From the NCBI GenBank assembly GCA_020348445.1, contig CP070751.1:836438-896037 (forward strand): a stretch of 59,600 bases of DNA, in the 5' to 3' direction. The notes beneath the pieces are model-generated. The model searched no databases, had not been told where the DNA came from, and saw nothing but the letters and a program-made list of their open reading frames with translations. The translations under genes were made by a program, and so were the position numbers. Shown piece after piece: positions 32,807 to 59,600 of this stretch. The DNA comes from Thermoplasmata archaeon (GTDB taxonomy: Archaea > Thermoplasmatota > Thermoplasmata > GCA-020350865). The stretch's first letter is position 1; each line of letters starts with the position of its first letter.

Positions 32807-32813
32807 ACCCCTC

Positions 32814-32932: not shown

Positions 32933-32979
32933 ATGATAACCAGTGATGATAACTTCCAATGATAACAGCCCATGATAAC
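32933..32979 (+). promoter_or_regulatory. Four direct repeats of ATGATAAC at exact 13-bp spacing; candidate operator
   Basis: Copies at 32933, 32946, 32959 and 32972; variable 5-nt linkers; about 50 nt upstream of ATG 33030. Confidence 0.65.
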
Positions 32980-33029
32980 CGTACCAAAAATGGTATAGTA
33001 TCTTAACACCAATGATAATATGAGATAAT

Positions 33030-33377
33030 ATGGACAAAGAAAATCTAAAGATGGACCCCTTCAAAGCGTCTAGCTTCATCTCTGATAAATATGCTGGGAA
33101 AATTCTGGCGGCGACATATAACTCACCAAAGAGCGCAAAACAGTTATCAAAAAAGTACAACATACCAATTGCAGCATGTTACAGACGCATTCGGGAACTT
33201 GAAAAGCTTGGCCTATTGGTTTGCGCAGGTATCATATATGACAGCCGGGGGAAAGGAACAAAACTCTATCAATCACAACTAAATGGTGCATATGTTTATC
33301 TGTTAGAGGAGAGGCTTAAGGTCCATTTCAAGCTCGCCTCAGGCATCTCACTTACAATGGTATCACATGCGTCTTAA
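33030..33377 (+). CDS. Winged-helix (ArsR-like) DNA-binding protein, close paralog of 32423-32806
   Basis: DKYAGKIL...PKSAKQLS...IPIAACYRRI.ELEKLGLL. Confidence 0.85.
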   Translation: MDKENLKMDPFKASSFISDKYAGKILAATYNSPKSAKQLSKKYNIPIAACYRRIRELEKLGLLVCAGIIYDSRGKGTKLYQSQLNGAYVYLLEERLKVHFKLASGISLTMVSHAS

Positions 33378-33466: not shown

Positions 33467-36400
33467 TTACTTCAACATTAGAAAGTTGTTTTCATCTATT
33501 TTATGATGAGAATCCCCTCTACCCATTCCAATTTTTTTCCTTTCCATTCTCTTTGATATTATAAACAACGCTATTATCGTGATTATTGGAAACAATCCCT
33601 GTGGATATTCAGGGATGGAAGTATAGGAATAGGTTGGATCGGGATCTCCTGTGTCGTCAGGTGCTCTATCAACTTGTTTGTTCTGTTCATTTCCATTATC
33701 ATGTGTGTCAGCGAACATCTCCGTAGTATTACCCTCCTCAAGAAGATCGTATCCTTGACCAAGAGAATCCTTATCCACCCAAAATAATATTGCATTGTTA
33801 ATACCTTCGCTGTTGTCATCATCAAAGTTGAATCCAAAGCTTGTGCCATCATAAGAATCTATTGTAATGTCAGTATACGACTCCTCGGTGGTCCAAATAG
33901 CAGTATCATCAGGAGGGTTGGTGCTTGTGGTATAGTCAAGAAAGATTTCCCAATATTCCAAAGGCCCTGCTTTATTTCGGTACAATCTTAATCTGTACCA
34001 TATATTATTAGTTGAATTGAAATAGAGATCATAGGCATCCTTGAATTCAACAGTTAAAACTTCGATATCAATACGCATGAACAAATTATCAGAATTGTCG
34101 TATGCAAAGATTTCCAGTATATCATCGTTATCTTCTATTGCATCATTGGTATCTGCACCCAATGATGTCCATGTACCTGGCCATCCCCCACCTGGAGGGG
34201 CTCTGGTGGATCTTCTTGCTCCCCCTATGTTCATGCCATCTAAAATATCTGTATAATCCTTTGTGCTGTTCTCCCAGTTAGACACCATAATATAAGATAC
34301 GAAATTACAGTCTCCCTGGCTTAGCCCGAGTTTATGGTATTCCACTCCAATTTCCAATCGCATGGAATCTATCTTTGCAGAAACACTTTCCTTCTCCTCC
34401 CATAACCAGTCATAAGGACTTACACCTCTCCATTCAAAGTATGAACTAAGTTGTATCCTGTTGTTCTTACCTGTAATTAAAATCATAAAGTCAGCATTTA
34501 TGTTTATCTGGGGTATAGCATATCCTGAACCTGACATTGTGTCTATGAATATGTAAACGTAATCATCGCCGGTTTTTGGTGGAAGTTTAGTTGTGAAAGG
34601 AATTTGATTATCATTATACTCGCCAGTTGTCTCGATTTTTTCTTGCTTTACAACATCGTTTAAATACGGTATCCTGGTGCCCCCTACAATCTCTCCATCG
34701 ACCTTAAGGTAGAAGGATAACACATGTGTTCCACCTGAAACAGCATAATTAATTATGTCTAGATTTTTATCTCCTACATCTCCTATATGATCATCTCTTT
34801 GGCCACCTTCATCCCAATCAGCGAAAGCGCCATCTATTTTCACCTCATCAGGAACATTTAATATGTAACCCACATCGTTGAGCCCAAAAACCGGGCGAAG
34901 TGTCGTAAGCGATATGGTCCCGTAGCTGGTATCTATGTCATGATTGTTTGCTATCTTGAATCCCACTGTATTTTCGATTGCTGATATGCTTCCAACATCG
35001 GCAACAACATTAATCGTAACAATCTCTTTATCTTTAAGAATTAACTCTGGATGGAATGTGATTTCATTCTGGTTTAAGGTTCCGTTTGCGACCATATTGC
35101 TATTCTCGTCCTCAAGCCTTATGTTTGCTAAATCGTTATCATTTCCCAAGCCTGTTCTTTGCACTTTCAGTGCATTGAGAGTAATTGCACTCCCCAATGC
35201 TTTTAATTTTATTCTAAGCAATATATTTCCCCTTCCCGTTACCACATCATTGACCATACCCTGCTGTTCTACAGATAGAATGCCTTTTTCATTGGAAACA
35301 ACATAATCAGAAAAATCCTCAAAGCCGTCCCAACTCTGCGTATGGAATATAACATCAACTTTAATACCATTTTTCAAACCCAAGATGTGAAAAGGTATCT
35401 TTACCTCCAGCTCGGAACCGCTTGCAGCGCAGGAGACTGTCCTTGATGACCTCCATAGGTTCCAGTCCTGTTTGGTTTCAGTATAGGTGTAAAGATAATT
35501 ACTTAAAACCTCACCGCTCCAACCATATATCCTCACCATGAAATCTGCACCAATACCCTCGATAAAATATCCTGTAATTGGATCTTGATCTGAATCAATG
35601 AAAATGTGGATAGTATCAACATGTTTCTCACTGTTGGGAACATCGGGCTCACCCTCCAGCATATTTTTATCAACCCGTACATAAAACGACAGTTCCATAT
35701 TCCTGTCATCAACTCTATAATCGATTATGTCGACATTTGAATTAAAACTCATCTCTTCCTTGGGATCTGATATTGCGGACACTTTATTCCAATCTCCAAA
35801 TCCACCGTCGATCTCAATCCCCCTTGGTTTATTTGTTATATTTGAAAATGCATAAGGAGCAAACATCAGAATGAACAATATTAGGGGTACAACCATCATT
35901 CTCCATATACTACGCCTTGGTTCAGAAATTCTGCTTTTTTTCCCGAGACCATTTGTGATACCATTACCATTAGTAATACCGTTTGTTATACCCACCTTTA
36001 AATCCCTAAGACCGTTAGTCAAACCATTTGTAAGACCGTTGGTAAGACCATCATTTGAACCACTACTTATTTTATTCTTTAATCCATTTGTTACACCATT
36101 TGTCAGGCCAAAATCGGTTCTTTTTACAGCACTAGATAATCCGTTTGTTATTCCACGAGAGCCTATCTTTGGTCCACTTATCAGGCTGTTTGTTATGTCC
36201 CTTGCCAATTCTGGTTTAATTACCACATTCTCTTGGTTTATGGATAGGAGACTTTCTGGAGATTCTACGTTTTGTAAGGGTTTTAGAATAGATTCAGATT
36301 TTTGCATTTCTTTAATAAACTCTGAAAATATCTTTATAGCAGGTGTATCTATTCTTTCTATCTCTTCATCAACATTAGGAGGTGACTGCGGTTTTTCTTT

Positions 36401-36631
36401 CTCCTTTGTGAATTCAGCCTGACATATTTCACATTCTGTGGATCCCTCATCAACAATTGTCCCGCACCTATGACATTCGAATTCCTCGATTACCTCCTCC
36501 TCTTGAAGGTCATCGATCGTTTCTATGGACTCCATAAATTCTACCTTACAATGAGGGCATCGGTTACTATCTTGACCAACTTTGGCCCCACAGATGGGAC
36601 ATTCGAACTCTATATATTCCTTTTCACTCAT
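33467..36631 (-). CDS. Membrane protein: 2 Zn ribbons, GLTN repeats, TM, conserved extracellular core, short cargo, IPEY (PEF-CTERM-like) tail
   Basis: 1054-aa ORF; paralog of 37205-43483 and 43543-56655; tail IPEYPQGLFPIITIIALFIISKRMERKK. Confidence 0.88.
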   Translation of the reverse strand: MSEKEYIEFECPICGAKVGQDSNRCPHCKVEFMESIETIDDLQEEEVIEEFECHRCGTIVDEGSTECEICQAEFTKEKEKPQSPPNVDEEIERIDTPAIKIFSEFIKEMQKSESILKPLQNVESPESLLSINQENVVIKPELARDITNSLISGPKIGSRGITNGLSSAVKRTDFGLTNGVTNGLKNKISSGSNDGLTNGLTNGLTNGLRDLKVGITNGITNGNGITNGLGKKSRISEPRRSIWRMMVVPLILFILMFAPYAFSNITNKPRGIEIDGGFGDWNKVSAISDPKEEMSFNSNVDIIDYRVDDRNMELSFYVRVDKNMLEGEPDVPNSEKHVDTIHIFIDSDQDPITGYFIEGIGADFMVRIYGWSGEVLSNYLYTYTETKQDWNLWRSSRTVSCAASGSELEVKIPFHILGLKNGIKVDVIFHTQSWDGFEDFSDYVVSNEKGILSVEQQGMVNDVVTGRGNILLRIKLKALGSAITLNALKVQRTGLGNDNDLANIRLEDENSNMVANGTLNQNEITFHPELILKDKEIVTINVVADVGSISAIENTVGFKIANNHDIDTSYGTISLTTLRPVFGLNDVGYILNVPDEVKIDGAFADWDEGGQRDDHIGDVGDKNLDIINYAVSGGTHVLSFYLKVDGEIVGGTRIPYLNDVVKQEKIETTGEYNDNQIPFTTKLPPKTGDDYVYIFIDTMSGSGYAIPQININADFMILITGKNNRIQLSSYFEWRGVSPYDWLWEEKESVSAKIDSMRLEIGVEYHKLGLSQGDCNFVSYIMVSNWENSTKDYTDILDGMNIGGARRSTRAPPGGGWPGTWTSLGADTNDAIEDNDDILEIFAYDNSDNLFMRIDIEVLTVEFKDAYDLYFNSTNNIWYRLRLYRNKAGPLEYWEIFLDYTTSTNPPDDTAIWTTEESYTDITIDSYDGTSFGFNFDDDNSEGINNAILFWVDKDSLGQGYDLLEEGNTTEMFADTHDNGNEQNKQVDRAPDDTGDPDPTYSYTSIPEYPQGLFPIITIIALFIISKRMERKKIGMGRGDSHHKIDENNFLMLK
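35945..36154 (-). repeat. (G-L/I/V-T-N)n tetrapeptide repeat block, paralog 1
   Basis: Nine xTNG units with varied synonymous codons. Confidence 0.85.
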
Positions 36632-36770
36632 CTTTTACACCACAAGATGCTCAAGGCATCCGATCTATATCTTTACTAAATGAGATTTAGTGTTTACACT
36701 ATCTAATGACTAAATGTTCTTTTTATGCTGGTGTTTTTGGAAATTCCACGACTTTTTTATCCGAGCCATG

Positions 36771-37208
36771 TTAATTCAATGTCTTTTCGTACGCATATCC
36801 ATTGATTATTTCGTCTATCCTCCTGATAGAATTTTCTATGTCCAACATTGCTACACTGACATATCCTCGTTTTTGAAGCATGACTAAAAGAGTGAGCCGA
36901 TCTCCCAGTTTTTTGACAAGAACCTTGTAACCATTATAATCAAGAATACGATGGGCGAACATCACCTCATGCTGCCTGTTTATCGTATAACCATCTCCAT
37001 CCTCAAGCAATTTCAGTATTTCGGATATATCCTCTTTGTAATTCGTACTGGGGGGTAGATCACAGGCTATAATATCATTCATTCCTTCCACCAGGGCAGC
37101 CCCTTTTATATCGCTGATTTTATTTAAGTCCGAAATCACCTGCTTTAACCTTGAGATTGCCAGATTTTCTTGGAATTCCGATTGCCTCATATCCTTTGGG
37201 AACTTCAT
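36771..37208 (-). CDS. Roadblock/LC7-like protein
   Basis: 145 aa with helix-beta-beta-helix-beta-beta-beta-helix pattern (LNKISDIKGAALV...IIACDLP...LTLLVML). ATGA overlap with the upstream giant gene. Confidence 0.7.
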   Translation of the reverse strand: MKFPKDMRQSEFQENLAISRLKQVISDLNKISDIKGAALVEGMNDIIACDLPPSTNYKEDISEILKLLEDGDGYTINRQHEVMFAHRILDYNGYKVLVKKLGDRLTLLVMLQKRGYVSVAMLDIENSIRRIDEIINGYAYEKTLN

Positions 37209-40200
37209 ATTCTGTCCTCCTTTTTTTCGTTTTTTATATTTTTTCCCCCCAACCTAAGCCCATGTTTTTTCCGGGATTTTTTTCTTGATATTACAAACAG
37301 AGTTATTACTCCGATAATAGGCAAAAACATATCAGAAAATTCAGGAATGATGTATCTAGAATGACAGTATGCTTTTCCTGCATCTACAGACAAAGGAGGC
37401 GTATCATCAGCCTGGGTGTCATAATGGGGTGCACCGCATAAAGTCTCATTGATACCATCACCATTGATATCCCCTGCAAATGAAACTGACCACCCAAAAT
37501 GATCGTACGCGTACTCACCCTCATTCTTGTATTCTTCTGTTGTATCGATATCAGAGCCACCGCAGAAGACATAGAATGCACCACATTCTGTCTTAGAACC
37601 GTTTGTAAAATAGGGTGCGCCCACGATGACATCAGGATCTCCATCACCGTCGATATCACCTGCGTAATGCACAGAGTAGCCGAATTTATCGCCTGCAGTT
37701 TCTCCGTCAAATAACACATCAGGCACTATGTTCATTGGATTTCCACCGTAGTAAATCCAAGCATTACCGTTAGCAGTATCTGGCATACCCACGATTACGT
37801 CATCATAACTTCCGTCTGCATTTATATCGCTTGCATTACCAACACTAAAACCAAAACTCGTGCCTCCAATTCCGATAAGTATTGTATTTGCATTGGTAGC
37901 ACTAATATCATCATCCATTGCATTACTTCCGCAGAAGATATAGGCTCTATCGGTACCTGGTGCACCCACTATTACATCATCGTAACCGGTATTGTTCGTA
38001 TCCCCTGCATTAGAAACCGAGAAGCCAAACTCCTCATTGGAAATCACTCCAGTCAATCTCACATAGTCTAATCCCAGTGGTAAAGAAATAAGTCGTGCGA
38101 ACCTTGACAAACCTCCAGAGTTCATAAAATGATCAACAGTATCGCTTTGTGCACCGGACAAGGTTCGTTTGTCCATTTGAAACGGCATATGAATATCTGT
38201 TGAGTCCCTGTTCTCGATTAATGATTCCTGGCGAGTGGTACTGGAAGTTCGCAGCCTTATCCCATTAACTGCGGTAGCATCATTGGTGAACCATGCAGCA
38301 GTTCCCAGGATAACGAAATCGCCAGACTCCTCTGGAGTATAAGAGTTTGTGACGAGAGTCTCCCATCCACCTGGACCACTATTCCATCCGTCAGCCTCAT
38401 TATAGTGAAATTCAGAGAATGTATCAAGACGTATTGCTGCAATATGGGCATGGTCCATATAAGCACTTACTGTTGGAGTTTCGGAGTCCACAGTAAGTGA
38501 AATTGTATGCGCACTAGTGTCAAGGGTGATGTTCTTAATGACACCGAAATTGAATCTCTCATTAAAGTTATCGTCTGGTTCCATGAGAGTTTCGCCGTAT
38601 AATGTTCCATCGATATGCATTCTACCCCAGACACTATCGCTACTGCTTCCAGATCGCAGATTTGCACTGGCAACAATCAAATAATCTCCAGAAGATGCGG
38701 GTGTGAATGTTGTTTCGGTGACAGTAACTTCAGGACCCGTAGTTACTATTGCATCCTCGATCTCATCATATTGATCTGCAGGGATGCTCATCTCTATTGC
38801 TATAATTCTTGTATTACGAAATCGGCCATTATCTCCTTCAGTCTTGTACTCAAGTTCAATATCATGCGAACCGGCAGCTAGATAAATATATTTCACTGCA
38901 GAGAAATGATACCAATCGTTGATATCCTGGAATTCTCTGTTTGTTTCATGGTATACATTTGTATCATCAACTATCAGGCGCAGCCATGTATTGTCGCCCA
39001 CCTTGTCATCCGGAGCCACATCAGAAGTGGCTATAATCAGATATTTTGTGGCAACAGGAGGATTGACAGTTAAAGTAAGATAATCTATATAAGTAGCGGT
39101 ACTTGCCAGTTCCGATAATGATAGACTTTCTGCATATGAATAGGCATGACCATTCATGTTGAGCCTAGGACCATAGAGTATGTAAGCCCTTCCCTGATCG
39201 ACACCGAGGCTGTATGCACCAACGATAACATCATCATAATTATCACTATTCATATCTCCCGCACCTGAGACTGAACACCCGAACCTATCATAATTATGTT
39301 TTCCAGTTTGATTAATAGTCGAATCTGTATCTGGATCATCAATTGAACTCCAAGACGCCGTGGCCCTTCCGTAAAAAATGTATGCTCTTCCACGATCTGC
39401 ACTATAACCCGGCGCCCCGATAATTATGTCATCATAGGCATCATTGTTCACATTACCTGCATCGCTTACGCTCCACCCGAAAAGATCCCCTGTATTGGTA
39501 CCGTTTATCATGACATCGGCATTTGCGGCAATGATATCATCCAAACCTATACCTGAGTACCCAAAGAAAATATAGGCTGCACCACGCTCTTGGCCCCTTG
39601 TTTCCTTATTTCCATACGTTATGAACTCATCATTCATGGAAAGGTACTGTGCCTTGATCCAGTGCCTGCTTCGTACTACTCTTGAGATGCGGACCTCATC
39701 CAATTTGCCGTTAAAAAACTCACCTGGGGCAGGTCCCGGATCGTATTCCTGAGCCATACTTGCAAGGTCACTATCTACGAGGTTTGGGGTCTCAGGGATG
39801 TTATCCAAATCCAATTCCCCATCTACATATAGAATTGATTTGGAAGCGTCAGCCACTCCGACAATATAATGCCAATTACCGTCAGAGATGGTAACACTAC
39901 CCTGATTGTCCTCTATAGCAGCATGATTTGTTATCATCTCAATCCTCCATATATTACCACCCGCCGAGTTATGAAAACAAACCATTGCAGAATCAGCAGT
40001 ATTATCAGCCTTCATCCAAAAGGCCACTGTAAATATCGAATCGAGATCTGTTGTCACACTGTCCATAGTGATATAATCATTTGTCCCATCAAAATCATCT
40101 GCACCATCACATTTCCCAGTTGTTGCTTCATCACCATTATAATTCTGTGGAGATCCATCATTATTGTAAGATGTGGAATCATATCTTGTGCCTGTTCCTG

Positions 40201-43483: not shown

Positions 43484-43542
43484 ATCTGCACCTTATATAG
43501 TGTTCTCTCTCACTCTCTCTTGAAATTTTATGGGTATTTTTT

Positions 43543-52500: not shown

Positions 52501-55500
52501 CACAGCTACAGTGGGATAGTCCTGAATAGGAGCTACTCCTCCGTTTCCTGCTTGGTTCACGAGTTTGTCTGAAGAGCCCCACTGGGTATCACCTGTTGTA
52601 TTGAGCTTTTGTGCGTAAATATCATAACTACGGGTCTGATCATACCAGACGATGATGGCATTATCATTTATATCCACGGCTACATCAGTTTCGCTTCCTG
52701 AGCTAGATGAATATTGATTTACTTTCTTATCGGAAGCACCCCATTGAGCAGCTCCAGTAGAGTCAAGTTTTTGTGCGTAGGTAACATATTTCGAACCGGA
52801 GCGATAATCAGACCAAGAAACGATCGCATCTCCATCGGAATCCAAATCTATCGCAGGGTCGATTTGAACCTGTGTTGTATACTGGTTTACTAATTTGTCC
52901 GAACCACCCCATTCTGCGGCCCCAGTAGGATCGAGCTTTTGGGCGTACACATTCCAGCCGCTGCGAGCATCCTTCCAGACGACAGTGACATTCCCTGAGG
53001 AATTCACTGCCACATCAGGTAGATCTTGGGAACTTGATGTATATTGGTTGACCTGCTTATCTGAGGATCCCCACTGCGGGTTACCATCTGAATCGAGCTT
53101 CTGCGCGTAGATATTCCAATTGCTATCGCGATAATCAGCCCAGACTACGATTGCATTGCCTGAAAAGTCCACATCCACTGCAGGATATTTTTGATCCTCA
53201 CTATCTGAATTTTGGTTGACCTTCACATCTGTAGAATTCCATAATGGATCCCCGTCAGAATTAAATTTCTGTGCATATATATTCCAGTCTGTATCACGGT
53301 CATCAGCCCAGACGACAATTGTATTTCCTGATGAATCTGCAGTTACTGCAGGAAATTGTTGGAGATCAGAATCTGAATTCTGGTTGACTTTCTTGTCGCC
53401 AGTTCCCCAAAGACACGCTGAATCAGGATCGTGGTAAGGAGCACCTACGATTATATCAGGATAACCATCATCGTTTACATCACCAGCATAAGACACATTC
53501 CATCCAAATCTATCACTTATTATGTTACCAAATCCACTAACAATTTCTTCAAGACTTTCGGCTCTTGTTCCTGTGGGTTCCATTATCACTCCTTCGCCAT
53601 CCGAATAATCTGAAGCCCTCCTCTCCCAGTCTGTGGCTAAAAAGTACACTTTGAATCCTTCATTTAGTGGGTCGATTTTTACATCATCCCAGTGTATACT
53701 CACCTCCATCTGCATTATGTCCAATCCCACCTCAACCTGATGGCTTACAGTCCATTCCCATTCCCATGACGCAGATCCAGACCATCTATAGAAGGTGCTG
53801 CTCAATATTTTATTATGCCTACCTTTCACCTCTATCATATAATCAGCATCAATTGGAAGGCCCACGCCATATCCTTGTCCAGAGTTCGTATCAATAAAGA
53901 TGTAAACCACGTCTTCTCCTGTCTTGGGTAGGACCTCTGGGATGATACCCTCTCCGCCTGGTTCTCCCCCGATTATTGGCTCAGATTTTGCCTTGTTGTT
54001 CCAGAAAGGCACTTTAATTCCACCACACATCTCACCGTCAACATTCAGATAAAACGCAGGTCCATATTCTGTATTGGATACTCCATATTTTATAATGTCC
54101 AAGTTTACACGATTCACATCTTTTGCTGGATCCTCGTTCAATAATTCATCTTCCCAATCAGAAAATGCTCCGTCGATACTCACATTTTCCGGTACATTTA
54201 GCAAATAACTGTTTTCATAGAAGTTCTCTTCTGGTTTTATACGAGAAATCGATACTGTCCCTTTATCAGTTATCACATCATGATTGTTCTCAATTCTCAA
54301 ACCTATGGTATTTTCTGAATGTGCATCCCCATTGACTGCGATCACAAGATACATAGTGCGAGTTTCATCTTTAGATATTAGTATATCTGGTCTAAAAGTT
54401 ACTCGATCCTCAAAAAAAGAGCCGAACACTAACCTCTCGCCATTTTCGTTTTCAAGCCATACTCCCGAAACATCAAGTTCGGTTCCCACACCTGTTCTCG
54501 TTGCTATAATTTCGTTGATTGTAATATCAGCGTTTTGTGCCCTAACCTCCATTTTAAGCAATCTGTGACTGTTTCCACTTATCTGAGCCTCCCCTGTGCC
54601 CTGTTGTGTTATGGACAGAATGCCATTCTCGTTGCTTATTATTGTATCAGAGAAATCGTCAAATCCGTCCCAGCTCTGCATGTAAAACAGCACATCCACC
54701 TTATCATGTTCATCTATATCCACTGCACTCATTGGTAACTGGGCTTCCAACTCAGACTCGTATACAGCAACAGTAATACTGCCTTTTAATTCCCACAGAT
54801 TCCAATCCTGTTCCAGAGCCGAATAACCATAGAAATTATAGCCTAAAAGCTCTTGGTTCCATCCATATATTTCTGCTAAATAATCTGCGCCAATACCTTG
54901 AATATAATACCCTGTTTCTGGGCTTTGATCTGAATCAATGAAAATATAAGCAGTGTCCACATGTTTTCCATTAAAAGGTTCACCTGCAAGCATCTCTCCT
55001 TCAACTTTTAGGTAGAACGAGAGTTCCATCAACCTCGCATCCACGCGATAATCGACTATATCCACATTGGGATTGAATGGTGCTACTTCTTGGGTGTCTG
55101 TGGATATAACTACTCCCCTCCAATCTTCAAATCTACCGTCGATTGTTATTCCTTTTGGTGGTTTAGCTAGATTCGCGATCAAATAAGGAGACATAACCAA
55201 TATCACAACTATTATTGGAACAACCACAAGTTTCCATCTACCTTTCTTACCCTCAAAAGCACCATGTTTTGCACTTAATCCATTGGTAATACCGTTTCCA
55301 TTGGTTATACCATTGGTGATTCCAGTCCTCAGGGCCCGAAGACCGTTTGTGAGTCCATTGGTAAGACCATTGGTAAGACCGTTGGAAATACCCCTCCTGG
55401 CCCTCTTCAGCCCGTTTGTAAGGCCGTTGGTCAATCCATTTGTCAATCCATTTGTAAGACCGTTTGTCATTCCAAACTTGCGTTTTTTATGTACCTTTAC

Positions 55501-56655
55501 AAATCCATTGGTCATGCTAAAAGAAGTATCGTCAGTTGGGCTTTTTCCCATATCATCTGTATAATCAATGGTAAGACCCTCAGTTGGGCCCTTGGCTTTA
55601 GCTACTTTTGGTACTTTTACTAAATCCACACTCACCTGGTCTTTGACTTCTTCTTTTTCTGATTCCGCGAGCATGCTTAGTATTGAGTCCATGGCTTTAA
55701 TTTGATCCGATTCCTTCTTATGAACCTCAGATTCCTCTCTAGGACCTGGTATACCTTTTACTTTCCTTTCCAATTTATCCTCTGACGCCTCCTCAAGTTC
55801 CTCCTCTAACCCTTTCATCAATATCTCTTCTAATCCCCTTTCCAATTCCTCTTCTAATCCTTCTTCCAATATCCCTTCTAATTCCTTTTCCAATTCCACC
55901 TCTAATCTTTCTTCCAATATCCCTTCTAATCCCTCCTCTATTTCCTCTTCTTCCAATATGAATTCTGTTCCGCATCTTGGACAAGCGTTGGCCGAGGATT
56001 CCACCTCTGCATCGCAGGTTGGACATGCAAATAATTGTTCTACTTCCTCTTCTTCCGAGAATATGGTATGACATAAAGGACACTCAAAAGCTGAACTATC
56101 CACCATGGCTCCGCATTCAGAGCATTCAAATTCTTCTTTTACTTCCTCGTCTAAAATTGTCTCGGGTACCTCCTCCAATAATGATTCGGGTACCTCCTCC
56201 AAGTTCAGAAATTCTACCCCGCATTCGGAGCAGGATTTGGCATCTTGATCCACTGCGACTCCACAATCCGGGCACCTGAAGTCATCCCCTTCCTTCGCTT
56301 TCTTTTCGTCCAAAATTTTATCGATCTCATCAGATAGGTTCTCAAGCTCATCTTCCAATACACCAATTTCCTCCTTGGGCGTCATATCCGAGGAAAACTC
56401 CAAGGCCTCTTCCCAGCCCTTGAATTCCTCGAACTTAAAACCACATTCCCGACATTTAAGCACGTTTTGATAATCCTTTTTGGTTAGAGTTCTGACACGA
56501 TAAGCACAAACAGGACAACTTGCCTTCTCGTTATCCTCAATTATAACCTGAGATTCCCTCAGATATCTATCGCAATTTTCGCATTTGAATTTGGGAATTT
56601 TCACTTTGGTCCCGCACAGGGGGCATCTTTTTTTGTTATCTTTTTCATCAGGCAT
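43543..56655 (-). CDS. Giant membrane protein: 5 Zn ribbons, acidic linker, GLTN repeats, TM, conserved core, 7-bladed FG-GAP propeller with inserts, 5 DUF2341-LamG modules, lamin-tail-like and DNRLRE domains, IPEY-CTERM
   Basis: 4370-aa ORF; motifs read directly; tail IIPEYDFVLIPIVMVPVLFTIFKRNRWKK; AGGTG RBS. Confidence 0.9.
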   Translation of the reverse strand: MPDEKDNKKRCPLCGTKVKIPKFKCENCDRYLRESQVIIEDNEKASCPVCAYRVRTLTKKDYQNVLKCRECGFKFEEFKGWEEALEFSSDMTPKEEIGVLEDELENLSDEIDKILDEKKAKEGDDFRCPDCGVAVDQDAKSCSECGVEFLNLEEVPESLLEEVPETILDEEVKEEFECSECGAMVDSSAFECPLCHTIFSEEEEVEQLFACPTCDAEVESSANACPRCGTEFILEEEEIEEGLEGILEERLEVELEKELEGILEEGLEEELERGLEEILMKGLEEELEEASEDKLERKVKGIPGPREESEVHKKESDQIKAMDSILSMLAESEKEEVKDQVSVDLVKVPKVAKAKGPTEGLTIDYTDDMGKSPTDDTSFSMTNGFVKVHKKRKFGMTNGLTNGLTNGLTNGLTNGLKRARRGISNGLTNGLTNGLTNGLRALRTGITNGITNGNGITNGLSAKHGAFEGKKGRWKLVVVPIIVVILVMSPYLIANLAKPPKGITIDGRFEDWRGVVISTDTQEVAPFNPNVDIVDYRVDARLMELSFYLKVEGEMLAGEPFNGKHVDTAYIFIDSDQSPETGYYIQGIGADYLAEIYGWNQELLGYNFYGYSALEQDWNLWELKGSITVAVYESELEAQLPMSAVDIDEHDKVDVLFYMQSWDGFDDFSDTIISNENGILSITQQGTGEAQISGNSHRLLKMEVRAQNADITINEIIATRTGVGTELDVSGVWLENENGERLVFGSFFEDRVTFRPDILISKDETRTMYLVIAVNGDAHSENTIGLRIENNHDVITDKGTVSISRIKPEENFYENSYLLNVPENVSIDGAFSDWEDELLNEDPAKDVNRVNLDIIKYGVSNTEYGPAFYLNVDGEMCGGIKVPFWNNKAKSEPIIGGEPGGEGIIPEVLPKTGEDVVYIFIDTNSGQGYGVGLPIDADYMIEVKGRHNKILSSTFYRWSGSASWEWEWTVSHQVEVGLDIMQMEVSIHWDDVKIDPLNEGFKVYFLATDWERRASDYSDGEGVIMEPTGTRAESLEEIVSGFGNIISDRFGWNVSYAGDVNDDGYPDIIVGAPYHDPDSACLWGTGDKKVNQNSDSDLQQFPAVTADSSGNTIVVWADDRDTDWNIYAQKFNSDGDPLWNSTDVKVNQNSDSEDQKYPAVDVDFSGNAIVVWADYRDSNWNIYAQKLDSDGNPQWGSSDKQVNQYTSSSQDLPDVAVNSSGNVTVVWKDARSGWNVYAQKLDPTGAAEWGGSDKLVNQYTTQVQIDPAIDLDSDGDAIVSWSDYRSGSKYVTYAQKLDSTGAAQWGASDKKVNQYSSSSGSETDVAVDINDNAIIVWYDQTRSYDIYAQKLNTTGDTQWGSSDKLVNQAGNGGVAPIQDYPTVAVNLSGYAIVAWRDYRSESNYDIYAQKLDSNGDYHWGDSDKKINSNSDSAHQRYPDVAVDSNDYAVVVWEDERNGANDDDIYAQKLGVGQDGGAAYIFFGYPGISSGDINASNANVTIYGSFAGDLFGWSVSDAGDVNGIYDDVIIGAPGYDNYKGRAYIFYGKATGLWSDVYDADTDSDEKITGESDYDKFGSSVSGAGNFDNSSYDDIIVGAPNAHGWWNSNWNYCKKITFDNTGQSEDLINFPVLVNLSASNFVYSKAKSDGTDLRFIDTDETTELDYHIEDWDSSGYSYVWVEVPQVDGSSSADYIWMYYNNTAASDVQDAAATYDANFMGVWHLYESSGTLFDSTSNDNDGTGSGGLTQGQTGIIDDAVDCDGNADHVDIPSSSSLNITAQITVEAWVKPDDVDHEKSDCAIVSKYQTDRAYCLAFNDDPGDADDWDWWLSSDGTTDGGQLHVSDAVTSNEWQYMVGTWDGTDMRLYKNGAELGTSISFSGPIYQSRGNLWIGECTVYEDMDGWIDEVRISNIGRSADWIAAQYLSMTFDFISFSNEQSFSDKVGYGKSYIFYGDGSIPISASNADKNYTGENYGDQFGFSVSDAGDIDNDGYDDVIIGAPFNDDVATDAGKVYIYFYGDSYAYVTSNVTTYGVITNFDNAKSAIDSGSYAILKEHDLGATTLWLWICDSTSDYIYRVNAEDSLASGSESGNVDISWENTGTTYPNGMALYNDYVWCVDYGTDNIEQYYPNNGTLVATHDISSFSGDARGFTYGGGYFWIGDAGDDNIYKVDPSDFSMVDYIDCDEGYFATDLPTYLEGLTWRDDIGSGRLIMTDPTEDKIYTIDIGNLSGNTIPNGDVTEVNTQSLDPGGLGWDGEYFWITDDGADTIYKVDPSNGNNVDSFSWTPGAPAGIECEIEVEIKYVLDIEFNTSSVLAAENLKLQLNYSVDGSETDFGVQVYDGSSWDDLGSQGDLTSTTFTTKEYTLDSDHRLSDGFVRIRFIGRNETSDTVNSTLNIEYHRIKSSGSYIALTGESTGDTFGWSVSNVSDINQDGSYDDVIVGAPFGDNLWWNSNWQYRKKLTFNNGAQSEDLLNFPVLVNLSASNFDYSKAKPDGTDLRFIDPDSSTEYNYHIEKWNSSAYSYVWVNVTQIDWGSTTDYMWMYYGNSNAVSAQDITGTYDINYTGVWHLNESSGTPYDATSYDNDGTIYGDVIQNVTGQVDGAYDFAGTADGQDDYIDCGNDASLYFDVSKSYTYSAWFYRHANADWDEILSKFSWSNYGFRIIIRPEGGAVIDVGNHTNSFVTGSTILSLNTWYHVAVVFNSSNPTVPEIYLNGNRETTSGSAAFLSDTSTPFDIGYGWDTEAFDGVIDGVTASNKIRSADWIAAQYKSMTNNFISFGNEQQDSPGKVYIFHGGSSMDSTSDVNLTGESNGDRFGYSVDFAGDVDSDGKIDAIVGAPYYDNGSYTNSGNVYVFKGGSSMNSLACYEFKGSQANEHMGWSVSFALDINDSGDNAVLVGAPHKDDGSNTDSGKAYILYIRIPQIVINEIMFNPTGGPWDGDWNCRKKITIHSSKVAADLTDFPVLISTTDSDLMDKAQSDGDDIVFVAADNETKLDHEIEYYNSETGELIAWVKLPSISSTIDTVFYMYYNNSEATNQENEEGVWSNGYVGVYHLVEDTGTIGNSASDTNDGIRENTPTRDTGKIGFAQNFTGSGTDDYFNLGDLGLTDGTNENFTISTWAYIDNSAIENWGKIVSKRNESDTTYSYQLSFNDDANKGIYIYVNDDGSTAQPVIKSNWTYVSFTYDGSSQLLYINESLILEDTGMSGPIWSSSADVFVGASGVPSMNYGGLLDELRFSNVPRSQQWIETEFNNQYYPDTFYTINGEDINTSAWTYRKEITINYEQVSGDIDGFPMMIQTTDSDLVTYAQSDGDDIVFTDWDGKSQLNHEIERYTSATGELIAWVKMASLSSSTDTTIYMYYNNSDVTNSEDDEAVFSNGYVGVYHMDEESGSISNSASSTNDGTRQDSPTRTTGWIGYGQDFSGSAGDDRFNLGDMGLTLGVLENLTLSFWLNINDPLLDTWGRVILKRDESDSNTLWGAYFDDDVTDKDLFFNAGEDGGAYEIGKSIWVYVSYTYDGTIKRHYQNGSQVRDDTGGGGPISTTISSAAVTIGGRIAGGQHYAGILDEVRISKVTHSADWILTEFNNQYYPGSFYTFNDEDITPSDWDYRKPITINSSKVTGDLFAFPVLVDITDSDLANDARADGYDIIFTDSEGESKLCHEIELFNSSSGELVAWVKVPRLFSSSDTMIYMYYGNTSQSSPTENPDGVWYPNYVGVWHLNQSGDGTADEFEDSSQFDNHGQGGSGTSSYVPTRIEGKIGYGQDFDGENDYIDCGYDASLDIGGKQITLEAWINFEGYDSDHYTGIMSHSGWAEGYRMVIKDTGNPLYFHLPEDSYSVASDNDLPTDSWVHVVAVYNGSKMFVYVNGIKSSNEVDKTDNIETCADEFWIGHGDNDVGVAWSYPWNGSIDEVRVSNYTRSADWIVTEYNNQNDTASFIYTGSEETPPSSSTTDSSSYNEWVELYNSGNTPVDLTGWYLTDNDGYKFDISGAGSIPPGGYLVCHLGQGGINSSTDVYGYIDYESEFVVQPDATAGKDVYLDSSLGIANTGTWVQMTVTNASSLYVRPLVQFDLSSLPPGIVKDAKVWLYRYDGHATTGATVNLHRVTQSWIEGTGQVNSGANWGTYDGTNSWAASGGDYDSSSEDTKTIAAGTDAWYYWNVTDLIRDWESGTYSNYGMIFEADDGSENQIFVSSDNSDSSKHPKLIVNMSTTAPMLENSDDLALMDSNSIIIDYVAWGETSGSDDDDAASWSQWTDGDYVDTSDLLENQTIGRDKDSNDTNLPVNWEDGAGKADPFGIDRSTENGSTPNAQNVDFIIPEYDFVLIPIVMVPVLFTIFKRNRWKKFISARNSSKIRAHCVRRRIILIFQIYKNRLK
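55276..55473 (-). repeat. (G-L/I/M-T-N)n tetrapeptide repeat block, paralog 3
   Basis: Eleven xTNG units plus one ISNG in this block; one more MTNG about 40 nt upstream in the gene. Confidence 0.85.
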
Positions 56656-56762
56656 TTCGGCACCTGTTTTTGCACTTTATTTCCTTGGATTGAGATTCTT
56701 GTCAATGTCTTTAGAGCCCCCTGGACTATCACATAGAGCAGAAGGGTACGAATTTCGTTTCT

Positions 56763-59600
56763 TTATGTCCTTTCAATTACACTGAATCGATTGTTGTTTC
56801 GTTCTTTGATCAAATTACTATCATTATGATCTGGAGGATCCTTTGGTTGTGATTTTAACTTCCTTTTCCTCCTCCAAACTGCAACAATCAGAATCATAAA
56901 TGTCAATGGAATTATTACCTCCTCGAACTCTGGAATAATGAAGTCGACATTGCAGGCGTTTGGTGATGATCCGTTTTCATTGCTCCTATCTATACCAAAT
57001 GGATCGGCGAAACCTGTGGCGTTCTCCCAATCCTCCGGTTCATCAGTGTCATTTTCGTTTTGATCGCGTCCGAGAGTTTGATTTTCAAAGAAGGAAGAAG
57101 AATCGATATAATCTCCAGCAGTCCAATGCCTCCAGGCGAAAGCGCTGTCATCATCTGCTCCAACATCAGCACCCCAAGCCACATAGTCAATGATATAACC
57201 ATTATTGTCGTACAACGCGAGGTCATCGGTTTCTTCCAGCATGAAAAGCTGTTGGGGTGTTGTAACTGTGTAATTTATAATCAACTTTGGACGCACTGCA
57301 TGATCATCTGCATTATCACTGGTTCTGAAAAACTGCCAGCCCGCTTCGTCGTTACCCAATAAAATCATACCATAATTTGGAAATATCCCATCCTTCCATC
57401 CGTCGATCAATCCTGTTATATTCCATTTGTACCATCCATTTGTGGATGGGAAGACCTCTGTGTAATCGTATATATCAGGATTGAAATCACCGCCTGCGTT
57501 GTACCAATTATTTGAACCATCATATGCGTTCCAGGTAGCTGAATGTTCTTCCCAGCTCTGAATCATTCTGCAGGCACTGATATTTGCACTGTAAGTGCTA
57601 CTACCATCATATCTATACATCCAGAGATTGGCATCGATTATATTATTTGATGTAAATCCTGATAAATCGAATTTTAATACACCATGTGCATCGCCTGTGG
57701 CGCTATCCCAGTCCTCAATATGCATCCAGTAACCATAGCCATAGTTCTGGGCTGGATTATCGATATCAAGTGTTGTTTCCTCACAGTTTGCCGGTCCTGG
57801 CTGGAGTGTAATGGAGGTGATGGTGTTGTCCGAAACAATGGGTCCATAAACATTAGTGGAGCTGTTGGTACCCGATTCTGCAAGATGACATACAAGGTAT
57901 TCTCCAGAGGCTATTTCGCCTGCACCTGTTAAATAAAACTTGTTGCCATCGTTATCTGTGATATACCAACCCGAAACATTTATCGCTTCATTTCCTCCAT
58001 TGTAAACCTCAACCCATTCATATTCAGGTGAGGCCCCCGATGACTCCTCATTTCCCACACTTATAAACGTGCTCGTGTTGTGCTGGCAGTTATAGGTTGT
58101 ATTGAGCCATGCATCTGAACGGACGATATTGGAAATTCTTATTTCGTCGAGTTTTCCATCCCATTCTTCCCAATCATGCGTTCCGAAGTTCAAATCCACT
58201 GAGGTCCCCACAATTGCTCCTGCACTTGATGCACTGTCAACTTCACTACCATTTATAAACAATTTTGTAACATCACCACTGCTATTATAGGTTCCTGCTG
58301 CATAATACCATGAACCAACTGCAACATTACTTATATCCCACTGTGCAGGAGCCCAATCTCCAAAATCGGAGAAGAACATGAAGCCATTAAAACTGCTGCC
58401 GTCATTCCTGTATAAACACATGATGTAACCGTCATTCCAGGAATTATCAGATTTTGAAATCGCACTTAAGAAATCATCATCAGAAGGAAGTAAAACATCA
58501 GTGGACCACCAGCACTCCACAGTGATGCTGCTCGGCTCCAGAGCAGAATCATCTGGGATATTCACACTATTATTATAGGTACCGTTGTATTCACTACCAC
58601 CGGCTATTTTTCCATTAGAATCCAAGGATAAATCACCATATGTTGTCGCATCGAAATCATTTGAAGTTGAATCATAAATAGTCCCGTAAGTCTCACCCAG
58701 GTGCCAAACTCCCACATAAGCGCTGTCCCACACACCTTCTGGATTCGCTATGGAAAAGCAATTTGGTTTGCCATAATGCATATAGATATAAGTGTCCGAT
58801 GAAGATGATAGAGAAGTGATATTCACCCATGCTACCAGTTCACCGGCGGTGCTCTCATAGCTCTCGATTTCATGGTTTAGTCTGGTTGTGCCATCCGATT
58901 TTGTGAAGTAGATATCATTTCCCTCGATATTGGCTTTATTGGCAAGATCTGAATCTGTAATACTGATTAGCACCGGGAAATATGTGAGGTCCGACTCAAC
59001 CTGTGAGGAATTGATCGTGATATTCTTCTTATACAGCCAGGCATCATTAAGAAATTCTTCATCACTTACTGTGTAGAATGAAGCTGTGTCGTTCTGGTTG
59101 TTATATTCTGTTGCTATCCAATCCGCGGACCGCGTAAAATTGGATACTCGAACTTCATCGATGCTACCATTCCATGGATAACTCCAGGTTTGGCCTACCG
59201 AATTATCTCCATGGCCTATCCAGAAGTCATTTGTAGATTTTTCGAGGTCATCAGATTTATCCTGTTCATTGGTATTTTTTACACCATTTACGTAAATAAA
59301 CATTTTCGAACCGTTATAGATACCAACTACATGAACCCAGGAATAGGTTTGAAGATCATTATCTGATGCAACCCAATATGAATCCTCAGGGAGATGTAAA
59401 TACAATGCATTATTTGTATCCCTAATAACCATACGATAACCTTCTGCCCACCCGCTATGGCTCATTATACCAATATAATGATCTGGATCGTATCCTTCGA
59501 AATTTATCCAAGCTTCCAATGTAATTTGAGCACCACCCATATCCAAACTCGTATCATATCCACAATCGATATAGTCATCCTCTCCGTCAAAATCTTGACC
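56763..59600 (-). CDS. C-terminal part of another giant surface protein (LamG, DUF2341-LamG, lamin-tail-like, DNRLRE, IPEF-CTERM); 5' end outside the window
   Basis: Frame stays open from 59546 to the window edge (GQDFDGEDDYIDCGYDTSLDMGG...). Tail IIPEFEEVIIPLTFMILIVAVWRRKRK. Confidence 0.88.
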   Translation of the reverse strand, partial: GQDFDGEDDYIDCGYDTSLDMGGAQITLEAWINFEGYDPDHYIGIMSHSGWAEGYRMVIRDTNNALYLHLPEDSYWVASDNDLQTYSWVHVVGIYNGSKMFIYVNGVKNTNEQDKSDDLEKSTNDFWIGHGDNSVGQTWSYPWNGSIDEVRVSNFTRSADWIATEYNNQNDTASFYTVSDEEFLNDAWLYKKNITINSSQVESDLTYFPVLISITDSDLANKANIEGNDIYFTKSDGTTRLNHEIESYESTAGELVAWVNITSLSSSSDTYIYMHYGKPNCFSIANPEGVWDSAYVGVWHLGETYGTIYDSTSNDFDATTYGDLSLDSNGKIAGGSEYNGTYNNSVNIPDDSALEPSSITVECWWSTDVLLPSDDDFLSAISKSDNSWNDGYIMCLYRNDGSSFNGFMFFSDFGDWAPAQWDISNVAVGSWYYAAGTYNSSGDVTKLFINGSEVDSASSAGAIVGTSVDLNFGTHDWEEWDGKLDEIRISNIVRSDAWLNTTYNCQHNTSTFISVGNEESSGASPEYEWVEVYNGGNEAINVSGWYITDNDGNKFYLTGAGEIASGEYLVCHLAESGTNSSTNVYGPIVSDNTITSITLQPGPANCEETTLDIDNPAQNYGYGYWMHIEDWDSATGDAHGVLKFDLSGFTSNNIIDANLWMYRYDGSSTYSANISACRMIQSWEEHSATWNAYDGSNNWYNAGGDFNPDIYDYTEVFPSTNGWYKWNITGLIDGWKDGIFPNYGMILLGNDEAGWQFFRTSDNADDHAVRPKLIINYTVTTPQQLFMLEETDDLALYDNNGYIIDYVAWGADVGADDDSAFAWRHWTAGDYIDSSSFFENQTLGRDQNENDTDEPEDWENATGFADPFGIDRSNENGSSPNACNVDFIIPEFEEVIIPLTFMILIVAVWRRKRKLKSQPKDPPDHNDSNLIKERNNNRFSVIERT

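Follow-up and report, generated by a model that had tools for sequence, protein, structure and literature searches.

Three complete genes at the locus share one architecture

The window, a 59,600-nt stretch of CP070751.1, is one entire contig of a metagenome-assembled genome (MAG) in which runs of 100 N link the 354 contigs; the source organism is an uncultured sediment archaeon of the Thermoplasmatota. The window carries an array of giant, co-oriented genes, A to D (Table 1). B and C are separated by 59 nt and C and D by 107 nt, and the interval between A and B comprises 139 nt and a 145-aa Roadblock-like gene. A, B and C contain 4, 10 and 10 CxxC motifs, i.e. 2, 5 and 5 zinc ribbons, and 8-13 G[LI]TNG units per gene. 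Their first hydrophobic helix, preceded by K/R, starts only at aa 243, 361 and 473, respectively, behind the zinc ribbons, and a short N-terminal signal peptide is thus absent from all three. Beyond this single internal helix lies a conserved core of ~540 aa that is 41-46% identical among the paralogs, with many invariant columns. The C-termini of A, B, C and D read IPEY, IPEF, IPEY and IPEF; after each motif come a hydrophobic stretch and K/R, in that order. The architecture shared by A, B and C is confirmed as real and lies far beyond chance.

An earlier examination of the DNA letters (the sequence-only reading) had described four giant co-oriented paralogs, the three complete ones of one plan, of which an integrin-like part was an element. 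The plan holds for A, B and C; because gene D ends at the contig edge, the complete plan is demonstrable in these three genes only, and the visible part of D, which is 38% identical to C over 958 aa, consists of cargo and C-terminal signal alone. The integrin-like part proved to be cargo of B and C, in which FG-GAP repeats (PF01839; E 3.8e-30 in B and 3.7e-27 in C) are broken up by DUF2341/LamG insertions, but searches with domain models found no FG-GAP in A or in the C-terminal 945 aa of D. In gene C the FG-GAP repeats share the cargo region with five DUF2341 plus Laminin_G_3 units, LTD and DNRLRE.

Assembly bears on whether heads and chassis belong together. Logan unitigs are interrupted at precisely the GLTN-coding repeats, where they cross-join B and C (42244 to 55443; 42586 to 55448), as might happen if the heads were separate genes or had been misjoined to the chassis at this repetitive DNA, an artefact of annotation or assembly. 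We find such an artefact scarcely credible, given that the reading frames are unbroken in A, B and C and in >130 independent homologs, that a single Logan contig covers 40464-45845 with zero mismatches, taking in the head, transmembrane helix and core of B, and that a swap of heads between paralogs would leave the architecture the same. Logan contigs from a second sample cover pieces of the junctions. No RNA run was found to contain the window's DNA.

Table 1. Features of the gene array in the CP070751.1 window (positions are those of the window)
Feature	Position	Strand	Description
Gene A	33467..36631	-	1054 aa; 2 Zn ribbons, GLTN repeat, TM, core, ~200-aa cargo without domain assignment, IPEY-TM-basic tail
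A, two CxxC...CxxC Zn ribbons	36422..36601	-	aa 11-70
A, juxtamembrane (G-L/I-T-N)n repeat	35948..36154	-	aa 160-228; 12-nt tandem repeat at 36007-36049
A, internal TM helix	35843..35905	-	aa 243-263, RR before helix; putative type II signal anchor
A, conserved core	34217..35839	-	aa 265-805; three predicted beta-sandwiches: CBM9-like, cohesin-like, CBM9-like
A, C-terminal tail	33470..33616	-	IPEY + hydrophobic helix + basic tail; PEF-CTERM-like
Roadblock/LC7-like gene	36771..37208	-	145 aa; ATG overlaps gene B TGA; assigned from Atlas score and structural TM, without Pfam match
Gene B	37205..43483	-	2092 aa; 5 Zn ribbons, GLTN, TM, core, FG-GAP + DUF2341 + Laminin_G_3 cargo, IPEF tail
B, five Zn ribbons	42827..43453	-	aa 11-219; acidic linkers
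B, GLTN repeat	42446..42592	-	aa 298-346
B, internal TM	42335..42403	-	aa 361-383; GKKGKWK before helix
B, conserved core	40742..42334	-	aa 384-914
B, PEF-CTERM	37208..37348	-	TIGR03024 23.7 bits vs cut-off 23
Gene C	43543..56655	-	4370 aa; 5 Zn ribbons, acidic repeat linker, GLTN, TM, core, cargo, IPEY tail
C, five Zn ribbons	55972..56625	-	aa 11-228
C, GLTN repeat	55279..55518	-	aa 380-459
C, internal TM	55171..55239	-	aa 473-495
C, conserved core	53581..55170	-	aa 496-1025
C, C-terminal tail	43546..43722	-	IPEY + TM + basic tail
Gene D, C-terminal 945 aa only	56763..59600	-	cut by contig end; Laminin_G_3, DUF2341, LTD, DNRLRE, IPEF-TM-basic

Long N-terminal heads precede a putative internal signal anchor

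A hydrophobic helix was found within 50 aa upstream of the core in all 110 representatives that keep the N-terminal edge of the core. More than 35 aa precede it in 84 of the 96 members of this set that start with M, and in a larger set more than 35 residues lie ahead of the helix in 139 of 156 M-starting representatives. A long head, rather than a plain signal peptide at the helix, is thus the norm of the family. The opposite, a majority of homologs beginning at the helix, had been named beforehand as a finding that would undo the idea. Mean K+R in the flanking 15 aa was 4.8 on the N-terminal side of the helix and 0.9 on its C-terminal side, with the higher value before the helix in 82 of 84 proteins, and 60 of 84 carried at least two GxTNG units within the last 80 aa ahead of it. 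Among the 110 heads, zinc ribbons occurred in 38, TPR in ~27, KaiC ATPase domains in 19 and HhH in 12. Paralogs in the source genome span the same range of heads (KaiC ATPase, TPR, HhH, wHTH and SAP), a wHTH head being present in paralog L007 as well as in homolog P0081. Because of the Lys+Arg bias at the helix and the heads with zinc ribbons, TPR, KaiC-like ATPase and HhH domains, the predicted topology, N-terminus in and ectodomain out, is well supported. The sequence-only reading had placed the head in the cytoplasm and taken the internal helix for a signal anchor; the positive-inside pattern and the fused KaiC ATPase, TPR, HhH, wHTH and SAP domains support the former, and nothing observed spoke against the latter.

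In the remaining 12% of homologs the N-terminus is plain and short, with the helix at its extreme end like a signal peptide, and the head is therefore dispensable for export. These homologs are also what would be expected if signal peptidase cut the internal helix generally, leaving head and helix as a disposable or separate stub and the mature protein held by its C-terminal anchor only; an A-F-S motif past the helix of gene A could likewise suit the -3/-1 rule. However, there is no conserved cleavage motif, because B (I-A-N-L-A-K) and C (I-N-I-A-K) have N at position -3. Furthermore, the elaborate, conserved heads with their ATPase domains favor a function tied to the membrane protein, and a location several hundred residues into a protein is not the known norm for cleavable signal peptides. 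We therefore regard cleavage at this site as very unlikely, and the helix as a probable uncleaved type II signal anchor.

One paralog has three transmembrane segments, in the order signal peptide, 2860-aa ectodomain, transmembrane helix followed by RR, 250-aa GLTN loop, K/R followed by a transmembrane helix, core and IPEF. Its GLTN loop is positive at both ends.

The core is predicted to form a three-domain pedestal

The core matched no Pfam or NCBIfam model. A structural model computed without an alignment reached a pLDDT of only 31, and we used in its place an AlphaFold2 model built with 51 sequences (pLDDT 92.4, pTM 0.90). In this model the first core domain resembles the CBM9 structure 1i82 (Z 11.4, rmsd 3.4 Å over 148 aa), which the core profile also matches by sequence, weakly (E 0.012); the second resembles sialidase N-terminal and cohesin modules (Z 8-10.9) and the third the C-terminal domain of glucodextranase 1ulv (Z 10.9). 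The core is accordingly modeled as three beta-sandwich domains, CBM9/DOMON-like, cohesin-like and CBM9-like. Known CBM9/DOMON proteins, such as Thermotoga Xyn10A CBM9-2 (1i82), and cohesin modules are like the predicted first and third domains and the second domain, respectively, in fold (Z 8-11.4), but sequence identity to the core domains is only 10-16%, and the fixed three-domain order beside the membrane is specific to the family. A search of the ESM Atlas with the core structure returned mainly the family's own members. A Foldseek comparison of the whole model with the PDB gave only generic multi-Ig matches (integrin legs, antigen I/II, PrgB) with TM scores of 0.1-0.2, which we do not take for a sign of relatedness to integrins. 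A predicted CBM-like fold is by itself no proof of glycan binding.

A conserved, membrane-proximal pedestal of CBM-like and cohesin-like predicted folds is also what a structural envelope protein might have. The family would then form an S-layer-like coat or glycocalyx scaffold in which the pedestal builds a lattice or binds the cell's own glycans and the heads serve only as topogenic plugs or clustering handles, with no signaling. The many copies per genome (20 ORFs here and several in most positive genomes), the minimal homologs of ~585 aa that comprise one ribbon, the transmembrane helix and the three-domain core only, and the precedent of the Haloferax S-layer glycoprotein, a known archaeosortase substrate, all fit this idea. 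Nevertheless, KaiC-like ATPase heads, together with wHTH, SAP and HhH heads, are hard to square with passive plugs, and the cargo is extreme in diversity and size, unlike that of a single lattice protein. A purely structural role is therefore unlikely in our judgment, though the most serious of the alternatives to an anchored, coupled surface protein.

The family has PEF-CTERM-class tails and co-distributes with a divergent ArtC-like enzyme

By their sequence, the tails of A-D belong to the PEF-CTERM class, to which they had been assigned at first sight: each has the order IPE(F/Y), helix, K/R. Only the tail of B passes the TIGR03024 cut-off (Table 1), and A, C and D gave no match to this model at E≤10. 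Across the family the model matched 14 of 34 tails at E≤0.01 (best 2.2e-9); when aligned, all 34 share the P and E of the motif. A long head and a PEF tail occur together in 98 of 111 M-starting, PEF-tailed representatives.

The sequence-only reading had proposed looking for an ArtC-like archaeosortase, and the source genome has two such genes, one for ArtA and one for a divergent ArtC-like enzyme (L001). The best match of the latter is TIGR03762 (ArtC), with 53.8 bits where the cut-off is 100, so that 'ArtC-like' is a tentative label as regards subtype and specificity; the exo_archaeo signature scored 43.9 against 23. A full-length ortholog (E≤1e-24) is present in 23 of the 29 genomes with the core and in none of the 171 without it, all from one phylum and hence not independent. 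Six core-positive genomes have no close ortholog. The expectation that such genomes would also be without PEF tails was wrong, since both that were inspected (G131 and G055) keep VPEF tails; another archaeosortase-family gene was found in 4 of 5 tested core-positive genomes without the ArtC-like ortholog.

In descriptions of known archaeosortase substrates, among them the PGF-CTERM S-layer glycoprotein that ArtA processes, the N-terminus carries a signal peptide that is cleaved. The family has in common with the PEF-CTERM/ArtC system the tripartite arrangement of motif, hydrophobic helix and basic cluster and a genomic enzyme whose best match is ArtC. It differs in that 88-89% of members appear to carry, in place of a cleaved signal peptide, a cytoplasmic head, 36 to >1000 aa long, together with an internal anchor, in that the motif is often IPEY, and in that the sortase falls well below the ArtC cut-off.

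The core defines a large family almost confined to Thermoplasmatota

Searching public data with the core recovered at least 866 clusters at E≤1e-3 and 214 at E≤1e-30; a scan with a single protein gave 9 related loci. Almost all named matches are from Thermoplasmatota; their source records describe proteins, most of them 'hypothetical', from MAGs of Thermoplasmata, the group that the sequence-only reading had named, or of Methanomassiliicoccales. Of 200 genomes sampled from the phylum, 29 have the core; its presence is consistent within families, and there are usually several copies. In the literature on PEF-CTERM, on zinc ribbons and archaeosortases in Thermoplasmata, and on FG-GAP, DUF2341 and giant proteins in Thermoplasmatota, we found no described family or publication with this design. 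An already characterized family of the same architecture, named beforehand as the finding that would undo the idea, was likewise not found.

A G-x-TR boundary after the core is conserved in the close subfamily. Such a boundary, along with the wHTH, SAP, HhH and zinc-ribbon heads directly upstream of the single transmembrane helix in paralogs and homologs, would suit membrane-tethered regulators that proteolysis switches on, as with ToxR, anti-sigma factors or Notch, in which the ectodomain senses a surface or glycan and the head is released or switched onto DNA, RNA or partners. Like ToxR/CadC-type regulators and zinc-binding anti-sigma factors, the family would have an N-terminal cytoplasmic effector, one transmembrane helix and an outside sensing part, and some paralogs do carry wHTH heads. 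In contrast to these regulators, its ectodomains reach thousands of residues and end in a sortase signal, and the heads in the window are zinc-ribbon arrays only; no homology between the two groups was detected. Moreover, G-x-TR occurs in just 54 of 180 homologs that continue past the core and also marks the natural end of short forms, and may therefore be a mere domain boundary. We consider proteolytic regulation distinctly improbable.

Links to KaiC-like ATPases and Roadblock-like proteins vary among loci

The 145-aa gene between A and B had an Atlas feature score of 0.93 and a structural TM score of 0.68-0.72 to Robl_LC7 clusters, and no match to Pfam, including Roadblock/LC7 (PF03259), even at E≤1. 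Predicting its complex with the heads of A and B gave a score of 0.00, which is uninformative either way. The cytoplasmic loop of paralog L038 had no Pfam match and BLASTP against the 145-aa gene returned nothing; in the Atlas this loop gave weak longin/Roadblock leads (0.84-0.86). The head of homolog P0175, named Roadblock by JGI, had no Pfam match.

Four stand-alone KaiC genes abut family genes in the source genome, and two family genes have a fused KaiC domain; models for MEDS and DUF7504 co-match KaiC-like domains. A, B and C are without a KaiC domain, the nearest KaiC gene being 3.8 kb off. The sequence-only reading had raised the question whether Roadblock and KaiC genes always accompany the family. 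They do not around two homologs in other genomes (P0009 and P0177), whose surroundings contained no Roadblock gene, no stand-alone KaiC gene and no conserved partner genes.

KaiC-like ATPases have been proposed as signaling hubs in archaea, which, to our knowledge, mostly lack classical receptors, and archaeal signaling modules built on these ATPases have reportedly been described. The family is like such modules in having KaiC domains fused to 19 of 110 heads and encoded beside several paralogs; it differs in that the three complete genes of the window have no KaiC domain themselves.

A model for surface proteins anchored at both ends

In the arrangement that we propose, each protein would run from a cytoplasmic head (a zinc-ribbon array here; TPR, KaiC-like ATPase, HhH, wHTH or SAP in relatives) through a juxtamembrane (G-L/I-T-N)n repeat with a basic patch, an uncleaved type II signal-anchor helix and a membrane-proximal pedestal of three beta-sandwiches to a swappable lectin, propeller or adhesin cargo and a PEF-CTERM sorting signal. 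The internal anchor would direct export of the ectodomain, and an ArtC-like enzyme would then cut off the C-terminal helix and leave a lipid anchor, so that the mature protein would be held at both ends. The cargo could bind glycans or surfaces, and the lasting N-terminal anchor could couple the surface protein to cytoplasmic partners, either to relay information or for positioning and clustering. Such coupling is suggested because several paralogs adjoin or contain a KaiC-like ATPase and genes for Roadblock-like proteins lie nearby. The family may thus link the cell surface to the cell interior; we infer its roles in adhesion and signaling.

Taken as one claim that embraces family, chassis, double anchoring and coupling, this explanation is probable, with considerable room for doubt. 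Its firmer part is that A, B and C belong to a large, undescribed, modular family of cell-surface proteins that occurs almost only in Thermoplasmatota and is built on one common chassis: the data show the architecture and its conservation, the topology as judged by sequence rules and domain content, the predicted fold of the core and the co-distribution with an ArtC-like archaeosortase, whereas the routes of export and anchoring, cargo binding and coupling are proposals. A bolder version is possible but doubtful, namely that the family is a transmembrane coupling system of giant adhesion receptors without described counterpart, exported by an internal anchor and served at its far end by a dedicated ArtC-like sortase, whose interchangeable heads and (G-L/I-T-N)n repeat relay surface contact to KaiC/Roadblock-type machinery or are released as regulators, functionally analogous to integrins or Notch and of independent origin. 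Like integrins, these are giant, adhesin-like proteins with a single membrane pass; the notion of outside binding coupled to inside partners is common to both, and B and C resemble integrin alpha and other FG-GAP propeller proteins in their repeats (E 1e-27 to 1e-30). Unlike in integrins, FG-GAP is here one of several interchangeable cargo modules, absent in A and D, we know of no beta-subunit partner, and the cytoplasmic part is N-terminal and large; there is no sign of common ancestry of the whole protein.

So far, archaeosortase substrates have been understood as ordinary secreted proteins to which a C-terminal lipid anchor is added. With its hundreds of clusters, the present family appears to join the sorting signal to a retained N-terminal anchor and large cytoplasmic domains, which would imply that its members are fixed to the membrane at both ends or else are processed by a new route. 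It also offers a candidate for the physical connection of KaiC-like ATPases with binding modules on the cell surface. The three-domain pedestal and the tetrapeptide repeat are elements that domain databases do not yet model, and their inclusion would better annotate many giant 'hypothetical' genes of sediment Thermoplasmatota.

The shared plan of the giant genes

The sequence-only reading had described the array at 33467-59600 as four co-oriented giant paralogs. Four long ORFs, genes A to D, do lie on one strand, but the window is exactly one contig, so gene D is cut at the contig end: its head (the part before the internal TM helix) and core (the conserved region just after the helix) are not visible, and only its cargo, the variable domains after the core, and its tail are seen. 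The common plan itself was borne out for A, B, and C by translation, motif counts, and a three-way alignment. Each head carries CxxC...CxxC ribbons (2 in A, 5 in B, 5 in C; Pfam matches Zn_ribbon_3/DZR) with acidic linkers and leads into 8-13 G-[LI]-T-N-G units (the GLTN repeat, at DNA level imperfect 12-nt tandem repeats), a K/R patch, and a single hydrophobic helix at aa 243 (A), 361 (B), or 473 (C). A core of ~540 aa follows, with 41-46% identity between paralogs, then divergent cargo, and finally an IPE(F/Y) motif, a helix, and a basic tail. Gene D is 38% identical to C over 958 aa, the likeness being confined to cargo and tail. Integrin-like FG-GAP repeats had been proposed as a further element; they were present in B and C, but not in A or D. 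A 48-nt (16-aa) tandem repeat at 55788-55951 codes for an LEEGLEEELE-type acidic linker in the head of C.

Genes of the array and of the same contig (window positions)
Feature	Position	Strand	Size	Content
Further predicted surface proteins	3-7016 and 29805-30917	-
Ribbon and TPR protein	9971-11269	-	432 aa	five Zn ribbons, then TPR repeats
Giant of another design	15149-24565	+	3138 aa
Zn-ribbon, coiled-coil, and KaiC protein	27110-29632	-	840 aa	soluble; 3.8 kb from gene A
Three HTH_20/MarR-like small paralogs	31180-33377	+	140, 127, 115 aa	opposite strand, just downstream of A
Gene A	33467-36631	-	1054 aa	cargo: one unassigned ~200-aa domain
ORF between A and B	36771-37208	-	145 aa	ATG overlaps TGA of B
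Gene B	37205-43483	-	2092 aa	cargo: FG-GAP, DUF2341, Laminin_G_3
Gene C	43543-56655	-	4370 aa	cargo: FG-GAP, 5x DUF2341+Laminin_G_3 modules, LTD, DNRLRE
Gene D	56763-59600	-	945 aa, open at window edge	cargo: Laminin_G_3, DUF2341, LTD, DNRLRE

The genome record, given as a single contig, is in fact made up of 354 contigs with stretches of 100 N between them. The stretch was present in two metagenomes from sediment, both belonging to the same study; one of them is probably its source. A Logan contig spans 40464-45845 with zero mismatches, covering the core, TM helix, GLTN repeat, and head of B and the start of the C tail, and contigs of the second sample cover junction pieces. Short-read unitigs from the two samples break and cross-join B and C at GLTN-coding DNA (42244-42590 and 55440-55470). 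These repeats are common to the paralogs at the DNA level, and recombination there could exchange heads or chassis. A head swap between paralogs has a slight probability, but the architecture is not in doubt.

A family defined by its core

The core (residues 262-805 of family protein P0001) had zero matches among Pfam and NCBIfam models, which likewise leave the GLTN repeat uncovered. An exhaustive search with phmmer, covering 1.84 billion representatives, returned 866 clusters within E<=1e-3, of which 214 reached E<=1e-30, with source names such as 'hypothetical', 'zinc ribbon domain-containing', 'FG-GAP repeat', and 'ATPase domain-containing'; no source record held a functional name for the family, and literature searches found nothing describing the architecture. 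Named matches came from MAGs of Thermoplasmata, Methanomassiliicoccales, or Thermoplasmatota, and bacterial matches were weak and restricted to the first core domain. The core profile was positive in 29 of 200 sampled genomes of the phylum, mostly in several copies each, with all-or-none presence within families (e.g. 5/5, 4/4, 3/3). In this genome 20 ORFs carry the core, and of the 22 PEF-like C-termini found in it roughly two thirds are those of family members.

An AlphaFold2 model of the core built from a 51-sequence alignment (pLDDT 92.4, pTM 0.90) was compared by VIA-align with 48,161 PDB representatives, and resolved into three beta-sandwich domains. D1 (model aa 9-189) is similar in fold to 1i82, the CBM9-2 module from Thermotoga xylanase 10A (Z 11.4, rmsd 3.4 A, 148 aa), which the family profile also matched by sequence at E 0.012, and to DOMON-like subunits, among them 2ivf_C (Z 10.7). 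D2 (aa 190-332) is similar to cohesins (Z 7-8) and, at Z 10.9, to the N-terminal domain of a Porphyromonas sialidase, and D3 (aa 333-541) to glucodextranase C-terminal domains (1ulv; Z 10.9). Whole-model Foldseek matches to integrin legs and streptococcal adhesins (TM 0.1-0.2) mirror only strings of Ig-like domains and are not read as kinship.

Heads and topology

A hydrophobic helix lay within 50 residues upstream of the core in all 110 representatives that keep the core N-edge, and 84 of the 96 M-starting representatives had more than 35 residues ahead of it (36-100 aa in 14, 101-300 in 29, 301-700 in 31, and >700 in 10). Lys+Arg averaged 4.8 per 15 residues before the helix vs 0.9 after it and was greater on the pre-helix side in 82/84; at least two GxTNG units stood within 80 residues upstream of the helix in 60/84. 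In a larger set, 139/156 had a long head; 98 had both a long head and a PEF tail, the IPE(F/Y)-type end, and 13 paired such a tail with a short N-terminus. Among 110 heads of at least 100 aa, 38 contained Zn ribbons, ~27 TPR, 19 a KaiC-like ATPase, and 12 HhH, and paralogs of this genome begin with KaiC+TPR+ribbons, SAP+ribbons, wHTH+ribbon, HhH with seven ribbons, or TPR. ATPase and DNA-binding modules are functional only in the cytoplasm; typical of extracytoplasmic regions are LamG, FG-GAP, CBM-like, and LTD modules. The proposed N-terminal cytoplasmic head ahead of an internal TM helix is well supported by charge bias and domain content.

Because no conserved signal-peptidase motif was found after the internal helix, we infer from the sequence that it is an uncleaved type II signal anchor. 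Removal of the head by signal peptidase is conceivable, but this missing motif, with N at -3 in B and C, argues against it.

A 3915-aa paralog, L038 (G000:C1:2657441-2669188, minus strand), has three TM helices. Its order is a signal peptide, a 2860-aa ectodomain (CARDB, Glucodextran_C, LTD, He_PIG), a TM helix then RR, a loop of 250 aa with GLTN repeats and K/R at its end, a second TM helix, the core, and IPEF. The loop, whose longin/Roadblock resemblance is only weak, is positive at both ends, which again places the GLTN repeat inside the cell. In L038 a complete signal-peptide ectodomain giant is joined via a cytoplasmic loop to GLTN, TM helix, core, and IPEF.

Minimal members of ~585 aa (P0008, P0013, P0128, P0157-P0160) comprise one Zn ribbon, the TM helix, and the core, without a PEF tail. 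In eight such forms the chain stops precisely at a G-P-x-R-type motif (GPTR in seven, GPGR in one), P0128 being a 247-aa fragment with the identical GPTR end, and long members of the close subfamily run on directly past it. This boundary after the core would suit a tethered regulator activated by proteolysis, which the family may conceivably be; however, the G-x-TR-type motif occurs in just 54/180 continuing homologs and may be a mere domain boundary.

C-terminal signal and archaeosortases

As to the assignment of the C-termini to the PEF-CTERM class, gene B scored 23.7 bits against TIGR03024 (cut-off 23), but A, C, and D fell below the cut-off. Across 34 aligned family tails, P and E of the motif were invariant, 14 matched TIGR03024 at E<=0.01 (best 2.2e-9), and no rival model matched. 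A genome search for an ArtC-like archaeosortase, suggested earlier, did find one (L001), best matched by ArtC at 53.8 bits vs a cut-off of 100 and above the family-signature cut-off, besides ArtA (149 bits vs 75). Full-length orthologs of the ArtC-like enzyme (E<=1e-24, 34-50% identity) occurred in 23 of the 200 sampled genomes, namely 23/29 core-positive vs 0/171 core-negative; weaker matches in other genomes covered the catalytic C-terminal part only. Six core-positive genomes had no close ortholog; four of five tested carried another archaeosortase-family gene, and family members inspected in two of the six still end in VPEF-TM-RRR. Across these 200 genomes, which are related and hence not independent samples, the association is strong but not exclusive. 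The gene next to the ArtC-like one (locus G000:C1:2830318-2833926) encodes a 316-aa protein in which an outside domain is followed by one TM helix and a C-terminal cytoplasmic Zn ribbon, a mirror image of the core family's layout.

What is well supported is the structure: a chassis specific to Thermoplasmatota, made up of cytoplasmic head, (GLTN)n, signal anchor, and three-domain pedestal (the core), with interchangeable surface modules and a PEF-CTERM end that is matched by the co-distributed ArtC-like enzyme. Archaeosortase-sorted surface proteins are a known kind; members of this family differ in their large cytoplasmic heads and in an N-terminal anchor that would be kept. Sec export would likely proceed via the internal anchor and C-terminal processing would likely come next, so that the ectodomain is tethered at each end; the cargo would attach to glycans or surfaces, and through the head, which stays in place, it would be linked to machinery inside the cell. 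A purely structural role in the envelope is also conceivable.

Neighboring genes

The 145-aa gene between A and B had no match in Pfam and no paralog in this genome, and resembles Roadblock/LC7 in the ESM Atlas (feature score 0.93; structural TM 0.68-0.72 to Robl_LC7 clusters). KaiC models matched 22 times in the genome, two of these within family genes, and four stand-alone KaiC genes (609499, 4366603, 4364195, 1157151) directly adjoin family genes. The 840-aa KaiC protein has one Zn ribbon, a Lys/Glu-rich coiled coil of ~450 aa (weak SMC matches), and a C-terminal KaiC-like ATPase. No Roadblock or KaiC partner genes lay near homologs in two neighborhoods of other genomes. In another genome, a small HTH_IclR gene immediately precedes the KaiC-headed homolog P0177.

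The 432-aa ribbon and TPR protein has no TM helix and looks like a free-standing cytoplasmic head of the family. Distinct from the core family, the 3138-aa protein shows that the contig encodes another type of surface giant with a part in the cytoplasm: it has an N-terminal signal helix, Disaggregatase repeat, Big_9, Cadherin_4, a TM helix (aa 2876), and DUF835 as its cytoplasmic C-terminal domain. The further surface proteins comprise two NosD/beta-helix proteins, one PQQ-like beta-propeller, and one two-PKD-domain protein with a lipoprotein-like N-terminus.
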